From Nitrosopumilus sp. (GTDB taxonomy: Archaea > Thermoproteota > Nitrososphaeria > Nitrososphaerales > Nitrosopumilaceae): a stretch of 64,000 bases of DNA. Below are positions 3,426 through 61,965 of the stretch, piece after piece. A model generated the notes under the pieces. That model was not told the DNA's origin and did no database searches. It saw only the letters and a program-made list of their open reading frames with translations. Made by a program: the position numbers and the translations under genes. The stretch's first letter is position 1. Each line of letters starts with the position of its first letter. Location of the stretch: the NCBI GenBank assembly GCA_965224195.1, contig OZ245040.1, positions 992,001 to 1,056,000 on the forward strand, written 5' to 3'.

Positions 3426-3986
3426 TTAATCATAAATCATTAATTCTTTTTCTTCTAGTAATGAGTGTAAATTGTTCACAGAACGATACACATCTTCTTC
3501 ATGTTTAGCTCCTGTACAGACAAGTTTTCCTGATGAGAATAACAAAATGACTGTTTTTGGATCTACCATTCTGTGAATGAGTCCTGGAAATTGTTCAGGT
3601 TCATACATACTTCGTGGTAATGTTCTTGCAGCTTGCTTCAAATGGATTTTTCCACCTAAATTGATAGATGCGACAATATTTTGAATTGTCACCACTGCAT
3701 TTTTTTTGACCTTAATTCCTCCTTTTCGAAGATTCTGCACTACTGTTTTTACTGCCTTTTTCGCCATTTCTTCAGATTTGGAACCAGTACATACCATTTT
3801 ACCTGAAGTGAAAATTAGTGTCGCTGTTTTTGGGGTTTTTAATCTGAACACTAGTCCTGGAAATTGATCCGGATGATATTCCACATCTGGAAATTTCCTA
3901 GTAATGTCATTCAAGTCCATTTTTTGCATTACGTCTGCAGAAGCTACAACATTCTCTACACTCACGATAGGTCTTGTTTGTGGCAT
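3426..3986 (-). CDS. tbp: TATA-box binding protein
   Basis: Two repeats of NVVAS...YxPxQFPGLxxR...LIFxSGKxVCTG. Confidence 0.98.
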   Translation of the reverse strand: MPQTRPIVSVENVVASADVMQKMDLNDITRKFPDVEYHPDQFPGLVFRLKTPKTATLIFTSGKMVCTGSKSEEMAKKAVKTVVQNLRKGGIKVKKNAVVTIQNIVASINLGGKIHLKQAARTLPRSMYEPEQFPGLIHRMVDPKTVILLFSSGKLVCTGAKHEEDVYRSVNNLHSLLEEKELMIYD

Positions 3987-59455: not shown

Positions 59456-60762
59456 ATATTTTCAGCACATCTGAAACCTGAGAACAACCATCTTTCATCT
59501 AGTCTGAAGAAATTTCTGTAACTTCCTCTAATTGACATCTTTGGTGTTCCAAAAGAACCTCCTCTCAAAACTTTTTGATTTGTAAACCATTTGTCATTAT
59601 ATTCGTCAAATCCTGACTTGAATCCTGGATATCCTGTATACTCTGATGATGTCCATTCCCAAACATCTCCAATCATTTGTTGACATCCTGAATTGCTTGC
59701 TCCATTTGGATATGCTCCTACTTCCAAACAGCCCCAATGATATGATTCAAGTAAATTACATTTATCATCAGTTGGTTTTTCATTTCCCCATGGGAATGTT
59801 GTTTTCTCTTGCTTGTCCTCATTCCAACAAGCGGCTTTTTCCCATTCAGCTTCAGTTGGGAGTCTTTTACCTGCCCACTTACAATATGCGTCTGCTTCAT
59901 AGAAACTTACATGACATACTGGTTCGTTTAGATTGATTTTTCTAATTCCTAAAAAGTCTCTTATGTACCATTCATCCTCAATTTTTTCCCAATACATTGG
60001 AGATTTCCATTTGTTTTCTTTGACTTTTTCCCATCCGTCTGATAACCAATATCGGTATGTCTCATATCCGCCGCTTTCCATAAATTCTAGATATTGTTTG
60101 TTTGTTACAGGAAATTTATCTATTTTGTAATCATTAAGATGGACCTTGTGTTCCGGTAATTCAATATCGTAACAAAATTCTTCTCCATTGTTTCCCATGG
60201 TGTATAATCCTCCTTTGATGTGGATTGATCTTCTTTCAATGTTTATCTGTTTTGTAATTCCATTTTTCTTTACAGGTCTGTATTGTTCTGCAAGTAAATG
60301 TTGTAAATCATACACTAAAAGTTCTTGATGTTGACATTCATGATGAAACCCTGTTATGATTAGTTTGATGGCATCTTCACTTAGTGTTTGAGTTTGAATA
60401 AATTTCTCAACTCTTTGATTTATTGTATTGAAATATTGAAAAATTTGATCAGTTGTTGGCCTTGAAACAACTCCCCTCAAACCTTTGTCATGAGGTACTC
60501 CAAATTGCTGATAATAGGAATTTAGATATTCTGAAAATTCTTTAGAGTAAAATTCATAATTTTTATCAATTTTGCTCATTATTGTTTCATAAATCCAACT
60601 TACATGTCCTAGATGCCACTTTGGTGGGCTCATGAAAAATGCAGTTTGAACTACAAAATCATCTTTTTCTAGAGTTTTTACTAATTCTAGTGTTCTACTA
60701 CGTGTCTCTTTAAACTGCTCTAGTAATGAAATTCCTGACTGCAACTCTGGATTGGAGGTCAA
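59452..60762 (-). CDS. egtB: Ergothioneine sulfoxide synthase (DinB plus FGE-sulfatase domains)
   Basis: SPPKWHLGH, HECQHQEL, RLPTEAEWE, GDVWEWT, YRNF, FSGFR. Confidence 0.93.
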   Translation of the reverse strand: MTSNPELQSGISLLEQFKETRSRTLELVKTLEKDDFVVQTAFFMSPPKWHLGHVSWIYETIMSKIDKNYEFYSKEFSEYLNSYYQQFGVPHDKGLRGVVSRPTTDQIFQYFNTINQRVEKFIQTQTLSEDAIKLIITGFHHECQHQELLVYDLQHLLAEQYRPVKKNGITKQINIERRSIHIKGGLYTMGNNGEEFCYDIELPEHKVHLNDYKIDKFPVTNKQYLEFMESGGYETYRYWLSDGWEKVKENKWKSPMYWEKIEDEWYIRDFLGIRKINLNEPVCHVSFYEADAYCKWAGKRLPTEAEWEKAACWNEDKQEKTTFPWGNEKPTDDKCNLLESYHWGCLEVGAYPNGASNSGCQQMIGDVWEWTSSEYTGYPGFKSGFDEYNDKWFTNQKVLRGGSFGTPKMSIRGSYRNFFRLDERWLFSGFRCAENI

Positions 60763-60970
60763 TATTGGAAAATTATGTTTTTTCTATTTTTATGTTTGTA
60801 GGTACTTTTACTGTGGGATATTCTCCCATCGGGTTTTGTCAGATCAGTTCAACACCCTGCCCTTTTGTTATTATACCATCCAAAATATTGCCCAAAAAAG
60901 GTTCAAGCCTTTACGGAATTGCACTCATGAGTAGAACACTTTATGAATGTCTGATTTGGAGAAAAAGAAA

Positions 60971-61654
60971 ATGAAAACTAGGCTTTTGATAATTTTACTT
61001 GTATTTGAAATGATGGCAATTGTAGGATTTATGCTTTCTGCATCTACGACGAAGATGTTGTTGGTTATCGCGGATGGTTAATTGATGGCAATTGTAGGAT
61101 TTTCTATGCTTTCTGCATCAGGACTGTCTTGTGGTATTCCTCTTTTTACAGAATCCTATGAAAGACATGACTTGCTATTACATGGAAAACTTGTTGAAAA
61201 AAACATTCCAGATTTCCTGTCCAACAAACACACTACTCTAATCTTTGATACAATCAAAGTGTACAAAGGAGAGTTTAGTAGCTCATTTACGATAAAAGCT
61301 GATCTTTCTTGGGATGATTACTATAGAGAGAGCGAAGAGTACATCTTGTTTGCAGATAAAGATGGAGATAACTATCTCAGAGAACTGTGTGTACCTGATT
61401 ATTTGGCATCTCCATCTATAGTTAAATTTCTTGATGATAATTCTTTTAAAACTTCAGAGGCTTATTTCTTGTATCTTCTGCTTCCAGAAGATGAATTAGA
61501 AGATGTTCACACTAGAATGAGTCTTTATACTGATTTGAACCGTGCTGAGAGACATAATGGTACTCCTTATCTGATTTATGCTAGCATTCTTGTCTTGATT
61601 GGAACAGGGATTTACTTTTTAGTGTATTTTCTAAAAAAGAGAATTAGAAAATGA
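60971..61654 (+). pseudogene. Secreted, C-terminally anchored protein (MKTRLLII...; possible TIMP/NTR-like domain) interrupted by a duplication plus insertion
   Basis: ATG 60971 reaches TAA at 61079-61081 within the insert; the same frame resumes at 61082 with LSCGIP...CVP and a C-terminal TM ending KKRIRK. Confidence 0.7.
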
Positions 61655-61896
61655 AAACATCTACTAAATTATCTTATCTGGGATTGATAGTGGCAACTAT
61701 CATGTTTTTTTATGGAATACTAGGAATAATTTCGGGGTTAGCGCCATTAATTATTGTGGGAATACCTTATGGGTTGGATGATATACAATTTATCGGAATT
61801 GCGATTCAGAATCTATTATCTGGCATAGTTCTTGTAATTCCTGGAATTGTACTGTATTGGAAATCTAAACTAATTAAGGAATTTTTAAGAAAATGA
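61651..61896 (+). CDS. Small two-TM protein
   Basis: Starts MKT, ends RK; ATGA-coupled at both ends. Confidence 0.7.
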   Translation: MKTSTKLSYLGLIVATIMFFYGILGIISGLAPLIIVGIPYGLDDIQFIGIAIQNLLSGIVLVIPGIVLYWKSKLIKEFLRK

Positions 61897-61965
61897 AAAC
61901 TAGACATTCTCATTAGGGGTTTTATCTAATTGGTTCGAGTCTCTGAATTTTATTCAGTAATAATT

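Follow-up and report, generated by a model that had tools for sequence, protein, structure and literature searches.

The stretch of DNA analysed here, referred to as the window, comprises 64,000 nucleotides of the 2.07-Mb genome of a marine, ammonia-oxidising Nitrosopumilus archaeon (G000), and near its end a gene for a secreted protein is interrupted by a short unit made of two direct repeats and the segment between them, in which the 72 inserted bases are built exactly like a single CRISPR repeat–spacer unit. The features of the locus, in window coordinates, are as follows.

60971–61081, plus strand: severed 5′ part of the gene, 36 aa, reading MKTRLLIILLVFEMMAIVGFMLSAS and then 11 residues read from the insert, followed by a stop
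61011–61044: target duplication, copy 1 (34 bp), TGATGGCAATTGTAGGATTT joined to ATGCTTTCTGCATC, lacking the TCT present in copy 2 and in the empty-site allele
61045–61082: spacer-like insert, 38 bp (39 bp if the C at 61044 is included)
61083–61119: target duplication, copy 2 (37 bp), with the extra TCT after GGATTT
61082–61654, plus strand: remainder of the gene, 190 aa from the TTG at 61082

The copies at 61011–61044 and 61083–61119 are direct repeats that differ solely in the TCT, and their start-to-start distance is 72. The boundaries carry a margin of about one base each; when the C at 61044 is given to the insert, the duplication becomes 36 bp and the insert 39 bp. Copy 2 encodes MAIVGFSMLSAS, which matches the homologues, and its TCT encodes Ser; this copy, with the TCT, is the ancestral version and of the ancestral length. 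The 38-bp insert occurs once in the window (0 matches in 100 shuffles), shares words of at most 14 nt with the remainder of the genome, and contains no terminal inverted repeats. Its G+C content is 42% (letters counted), compared with 33.6% for the genome and 40–42% for the native spacers. The reading frame that opens at ATG 60971 passes through copy 1 into the insert and ends there at TAA 61079–61081, and the TTG at 61082 continues the same frame. A first-pass annotation of this DNA had described a repeat–insert–repeat structure around a unique 38-bp segment that supplies the stop breaking the gene; apart from the play of about one base at the boundaries, that description is right to the base, as regards both the uniqueness of the segment and the position of the stop within it.

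The remainder ORF (61082–61654) belongs to a protein conserved in Nitrosopumilus, roughly 215 aa long, that carries a signal peptide and is anchored in the membrane at its C-terminus; the ORF has lost the MKTR... start of the signal peptide. It has 62 relatives at E ≤0.001, the window's own protein excluded. The 15 relatives examined are 207–220 aa long, the few named ones being Nitrosopumilus or Nitrosopumilaceae records, and Pfam assigned no family to the downstream ORF or to two of its relatives. Most homologues examined start with MKTRLLII..GMMxIxGFSxxxASGLSCGIPLFTESYERHD, and the duplicated segment is single in each of them, whereas MMAIVGF(S)MLSAS is present in both window ORFs; thus a 72-bp in-frame piece lies within the signal-peptide codons. 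Removal of the unit in silico at this site converts ORFs of 50 and 190 aa into one of 211 aa. At the other end of the gene, the C-terminus encoded by 61540–61654 is unlike that of every homologue examined and about 25 aa shorter, and it still terminates in a hydrophobic stretch and basic residues. Upstream of the gene, a 47-bp stretch at 60823–60869 has a second copy at C1:1811925 (minus strand, 3 substitutions); its depth in the public sequencing runs X19 and X20 is 3–5 times that of the surroundings, contigs break there, and it has no Rfam or tRNA match. Rfam and tRNA scans for RNA genes near the insertion site were empty.

Four public runs that hold the locus (X19, X20, X22 and X23) were compared over window positions 60300–61900; runs X1–X18 contain small shares of the stretch only and were left outside the comparison. 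Contigs of X19, X20 and X22 join 61010 directly to 61083, omitting exactly 72 bp, and therefore represent the empty site. Their depths are 125 (X19), 379 (X20) and 15 (X22), and they come from two studies, X19 and X20 from one and X22 from the other. In the flanks of these contigs, 0 other letters occur over 60831–61010 and 61083–61900 (for X22, 61083–61424). The unit is polymorphic among near-identical strains. X23 provides no contig spanning the site. An insertion-bearing contig is found in none of the four public runs compared, although contigs can drop rare variants, so the inserted form is known from the genome assembly alone. Since the longest exact run common to copy 1 and copy 2 is 20 bp, the joint is not a collapsed repeat, provided that the contigs were built from 31-letter words; this is the word size of the runs' index, and its use in contig building is assumed. 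Recombination between the two copies could also bring the intact gene back, which means that the empty site may be either ancestral or revertant.

Regarding the enzymes available for such an insertion, a search with PF01867 (Cas1) gives three matches in the genome, each in a type I cas operon adjoining an array.

First locus: 90 repeats of 36 nt; spacers 34–42 nt, mode 36–37; Cas4-Cas1 fusion, Cas2, Cas3 and a GSU0054-family protein
Second locus: 68 repeats of 30 nt; spacer mode 36–37; cas6/7/5/3 and cas4-cas1-cas2
Third locus: 132 repeats of 37 nt; spacers 32–48 nt, mode 35–36; cas7/5/3, cas6b, cas1 and cas4

Cas2 is found at two loci, those with the 36-nt and 30-nt repeats, and the gene set of the 36-nt locus is what we take to be subtype I-G, formerly I-U. 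In size, the unit (duplication 37 or 36 bp, insert 38 or 39 bp) agrees with the first and third systems, and the insert length lies within the native spacer range of 34–42 nt. The first-pass annotation had pointed to the presence of cas1 and cas2 and to the native repeat and spacer lengths as matters to be checked; the lineage has both genes, and repeats of 36 and 37 nt with spacers of 34–42 nt agree with the unit. An orphan, degenerate pair of native 36-nt repeats with a period of 74 also lies at C1:1626225–1626330, remote from the cas genes.

Similar units were searched for throughout the chromosome by two scans. The seed-based one, for isolated direct repeats outside arrays, gave 51 pairs at periods 50–100, with 40 of them at periods 66–82; removal of three tandem coding repeats and the one orphan native-like repeat pair left 36 units. 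Core units, defined by a duplication of 35–39 bp, an insert of 34–38 bp and a period of 70–74, number 29, and their periods are 70 (1 unit), 71 (4), 72 (7), 73 (11) and 74 (6). The seedless scan, covering periods 36–160, gave 50 isolated pairs, 28 of which have periods of 71–74 (4–10 at each), as against 0–2 at every other period in that range; this peak implies that the units are more than chance. This second scan missed the 61011–61119 unit, on account of its indel, and one other unit. Accordingly, the chromosome carries about 30 isolated units of this size, as a genome-wide scan proposed in the first-pass annotation was to look for.

The 29 core inserts are mutually different and distinct from the 287 array spacers, and their mean G+C content is 0.41, like that of the native spacers. 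The duplications measure 36 bp in 8 units, 37 bp in 9, 38 bp in 7 and 39 bp in 3, a distribution resembling that of 36-bp and 37-bp duplications mixed together. The two copies are identical in 21 of the 29 core units (rows counted); together with the strain polymorphism of the unit described above, this indicates recent and ongoing events. When units were removed in silico, longer ORFs were restored at eight sites, including this one, and another seven units are inserted in frame without closing the ORF; the unit at C1:3949 gave no valid result. The units cluster, with five in C1:882675–923061, three in 1541050–1549643, four in 1692970–1745573 and, if the contig is circular, four made up of those in 2047816–2053230 plus the one at 3949. 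Many lie in regions of short ORFs. One-base differences between copies are often situated 10–12 nt from a repeat end (units 1549643, 1718775, 1973078, 2052402 and 1619794), a position that may reflect gap repair or may be chance.

The comparison was made among three genomes, namely G000, G126 (another species of the genus, whose 1.87-Mb contig C1 was scanned whole) and G010. The single array on the G126 contig has 163 repeats of 36 nt and adjoins a Cas4-Cas1 fusion; the other Cas1 there is an 83-aa fragment only, at 1123019. The same period scan in G126 placed 24 of 55 isolated pairs at periods 71–74. Core units number 23, with identical copies in 18 of them, and their duplications have a mode of 36 bp (11 units), followed by 37 bp (6) and 38 bp (3), which is about the distribution to be expected from a 36-bp ruler with chance matches at the ends. 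As G126 has only a 36-nt array on this contig and nevertheless has units, a 36-nt Cas4-Cas1-type system is sufficient for their formation. G010 gave no Cas1 match, and in the 800 kb of its 1.36 Mb that were scanned, 0 of 9 isolated pairs had periods of 71–75. One G010 pair, at C1:607126, has a 37-bp duplication, a 33-bp insert and a period of 70, and may be a relic or chance. When the G000 core units with 400-bp flanks were compared with G126 and the 800 kb of G010, seven had a single target copy (23–38 bp) in G126 and/or G010 and an eighth had contiguous flanks there, so that the insertions are, as far as these alignments tell, the derived state.

G126 contains in addition a second class of pairs on C1, at 431953, 1251065, 1265409, 1483340, 1573079 and 1573477, with duplications of 27–32 bp, inserts of 34–39 bp and periods of 64–67. 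A 30-nt array on this contig was looked for as their match, and the candidate cluster proved to be a 60-bp coding tandem repeat. Since the second class and the Cas1 fragment occur on G126 C1 with no 30-nt array, the corresponding system may have been lost. The G126 units at C1:37490 and 243305 have the same insert and near-identical repeats and were apparently copied with a larger duplicated segment.

With respect to the origin of the inserts, 5 of the 29 core inserts in G000 reproduce remote places on their own chromosome, with identities of 36/37, 35/35, 35/36, 34/36 and 36/37 from the first to the last insert base. In G126, 6 of the 23 core inserts are likewise copied from its own chromosome. 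By comparison, none of the 287 array spacers of G000 has a full-length self match, the best being an 18-nt word (5/29 versus 0/287, Fisher P = 5e-6). The occurrence of self inserts at stray sites and none in arrays is expected if a self spacer is lethal in a working array and harmless at a stray site.

For the 38-mer at the locus, viral_contigs, genome_contigs and metagenome_contigs yielded 0 exact matches, blastn against phages and plasmids gave chance-level matches only (E ≥0.1), and the insert extended by 14 nt of flank at either end matched none of 150 other genomes of the genus. Three other non-self inserts had 0 exact matches in viral_contigs. A 1822-bp contig of run X20 (depth 52), with unrelated flanks, matches 61044–61082 at 35 of 39 positions, that is, with 4 differences, and may be where the insert came from or be related to its source. 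TTG adjoins this match on the minus strand, and the orientation of the unit is ambiguous. Beside 11 self-derived protospacers (5 from G000 and 6 from G126), no common PAM is seen. Thus, of the source search and PAM inspection suggested in the first-pass annotation, the former has produced the 35/39 match in place of an exact source and the latter no consistent motif.

Site choice was considered in the same way. Likeness of a unit boundary to the 3′ end of the native repeat (ATTGAAGC) at 6 or more of 8 positions was a test fixed beforehand; it is found in 6 of 29 G000 units, as against 4.2% of random sites, a modest enrichment that was not reproduced in G126 (1 of 23 units), and likeness to the 5′ end of the native repeat shows no enrichment. 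Gibbs sampling yields TTGCAGC-AG at one boundary (the hyphen marking it) in a subset of units only. The 61011–61119 unit matches the consensus drawn from the G000 units at 5 of 8 positions in both orientations, which leaves its orientation ambiguous.

We consider it very probable that the Cas1-Cas2 spacer integrase of this archaeon inserted about 38 bp off-target into the secreted-protein gene. In normal acquisition, the CRISPR repeat is duplicated by a staggered attack followed by gap filling. Here, the integrase, for which the Cas4-Cas1 fusion with Cas2 of the 36-nt locus or the Cas1 of the 37-nt locus are the candidates, would have captured about 38 bp of foreign DNA and inserted it not at the leader end of an array but at an ordinary chromosomal site, within signal-peptide codons. 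Two staggered attacks, set 36–37 bp apart by the ruler of the enzyme, would have been followed by gap filling that duplicated the target on both sides. The outcome would be the 72-bp in-frame insertion, whose TAA splits the gene, and one copy would have lost 3 bp, either during repair or later. Catalysis of this insertion by Cas1-Cas2 is what we infer, and the ectopic spacer acquisition put forward in the first-pass annotation gains support from the cas genes, the sizes, the approximately 30 siblings and the lack of a local source for the insert. The empty site, the sibling inserts copied from the host chromosome, the single-copy target sites in other species, the contrast among the three genomes and the possible source in run X20 speak for it as well.

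Several points stand against this reading. The copies are not identical, the 3-bp indel being of a kind that imprecise repair might produce; the collections searched gave no exact source for the insert, and the 11 inserts of known source have no consistent PAM beside them; the boundary likeness to the native repeat is modest in G000 and was not reproduced in G126; the orientation of the unit is ambiguous; the inserted form is known from the assembly alone; and the comparison covers three genomes, with 800 kb of G010 as the negative control, in which one pair has a period of 70. A tandem duplication with filler DNA between its copies could in principle arise without any Cas protein, by replication slippage, template switching or break repair, and besides the indel this would agree with the templating of 5 of the 29 sibling inserts from elsewhere in the chromosome. 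The insert at this locus, however, has no template nearby or in the genome, and its derivation from adjacent or paralogous sequence, a possibility that the first-pass annotation had raised, is contradicted by its uniqueness in both. Moreover, repair gives no reason for some 30 occurrences of a 36–37-bp duplication with a 34–38-bp filler and a sharp peak at 71–74, nor would repair units be expected to be absent from the Cas1-less relative G010; an origin of this kind is very unlikely. Direct repeats flank integrated elements too, of which Thaumarchaeota carry many according to PMC6563490, and the copies might be the attL and attR of a mobile element that was almost wholly deleted later. This history needs about 30 independent deletions, each leaving 34–38 bp, and is at odds with inserts that are 35–37-bp copies of ordinary chromosomal places and with the mutual unrelatedness of all inserts, so it has only a minute probability.

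An assembly or sequencing artefact in the genome record would agree with the runs, four of which lack a contig with the insertion while three of these show the uninterrupted site at high depth. Nevertheless, contigs drop rare variants, and the independently assembled genome of another species, G126, has the same class of units. We know of no artefact that makes 36–37-bp duplications around unique 35–38-bp pieces, and an artefact here is judged to be just as improbable as a deleted element. Insertion of the piece by a casposase or a stand-alone Cas1, an alternative that the first-pass annotation had mentioned as casposase-like, gains some plausibility from the occurrence of casposons in this genus (PMC8464041) and from the relative G032, which has three Cas1 matches in open frames of 409–416 aa that might, at a guess, be casposases. 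In G000, though, the three Cas1 genes are the only ones and all lie inside cas operons beside arrays, the insert has no terminal inverted repeats, and the duplications given in PMC8464041 are 13 bp for the enzyme of this genus and about 14 bp for family 2, not 36–37 bp. The casposase alternative is therefore not supported and is the least probable of all.

Off-target integration by Cas1-Cas2 leaves the question of whether the product functions as an array. The native 36-nt repeat forms a 7-bp hairpin (-8.2 kcal/mol, z -2.8), and a native-like hairpin is absent from the repeat of the unit on both strands (z -0.2 and -0.5); by eye, the unit repeat has no sequence likeness to the native one. No unit in G000 or G126 has a second spacer. 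Chains of three copies at periods 71–75 were not found in G000 outside coding tandem repeats, and for the two three-copy chains in G126 the judgement drew only on the first 40 letters and the equality of the periods. In view of the missing hairpin and second spacers, we read the units as dead ends of adaptation rather than young arrays; the 61011–61119 unit would likewise be an off-target integration that led nowhere instead of a functioning array, and would be without immune function. The nascent one-spacer array of the first-pass annotation is consequently borne out in structure, while the missing native-like hairpin and the lack of a second spacer in any unit of two genomes speak against its being nascent.

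Off-target integration by Cas1-Cas2, called "neo-CRISPR", is reported for E. coli (Nivala, Shipman and Church 2018, Nat Microbiol 3:310), in work on type I-E with overproduced adaptation proteins. A preprint citing it describes the evidence from natural genomes as circumstantial and from two other species only. The present units are alike in having a spacer-sized insert outside an array, a target duplication of native-repeat length and copies unrelated to the native repeat; unlike the E. coli events, they are natural and archaeal, occur in a host with Cas4-Cas1 (36-nt) and 37-nt type I systems, amount to about 30 per genome, and none has grown. They share with leader-end acquisition by type I Cas4-Cas1 systems the same enzymes, a 36-nt duplication and inserts of 35–39 bp. 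In contrast to that process, the units occupy targets other than CRISPR repeats, have no leader and show no PAM pattern, and self inserts survive at the stray units (5/29) as they do not in arrays (0/287).

Ectopic spacer acquisition within arrays is described for Streptococcus thermophilus and S. mutans in PMC7999890 and PMC8265633. In those accounts, as here, a spacer enters a place other than the leader-proximal repeat; the streptococcal target, however, is a true CRISPR repeat in an array, whereas here it is ordinary chromosomal DNA. As for casposons, the family 1 casposase of Ca. Nitrosopumilus koreensis AR1 is reported in PMC8464041 to generate a 13-bp duplication and to involve terminal inverted repeats and a specific target site. 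A Cas1-family integrase, a ruler and a target-site duplication are common to both, whereas the units lack the 13-bp duplication, the terminal inverted repeats and the specific site described there. The literature searched, subscription papers and supplements being outside the search, mentioned neither such units in Nitrosopumilus nor any natural set spanning a whole genome.

The genome thus offers, in a natural archaeon, a clean case with an empty site and about 30 siblings, and a second species does likewise. The presence of about 30 stray units in one genome suggests that the CRISPR spacer integrase often misses the array in nature. We lean towards the broader view that, in marine Nitrosopumilus with a Cas4-Cas1-type module, the integrase naturally and routinely writes spacers chromosome-wide, leaving dozens of recent units per genome. 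If this is true, CRISPR adaptation would be a notable internal mutagen that splits genes, damage that recombination between the copies could undo, and the units would quantify a hidden cost of adaptation, the insertion mutations that it causes in the organism's own genes. The finding would also bear on the origin of new arrays, considering that in G000 and G126 none of the units has grown. As stray units would not serve as immune memory, they would also preserve a record of integrase uptake before selection, in which self DNA would make up about a fifth to a quarter of the uptake (5/29 and 6/23), as opposed to none in the real arrays. The units would therefore provide a natural, unselected sample of spacer uptake for the question of how well CRISPR adaptation distinguishes self from non-self.
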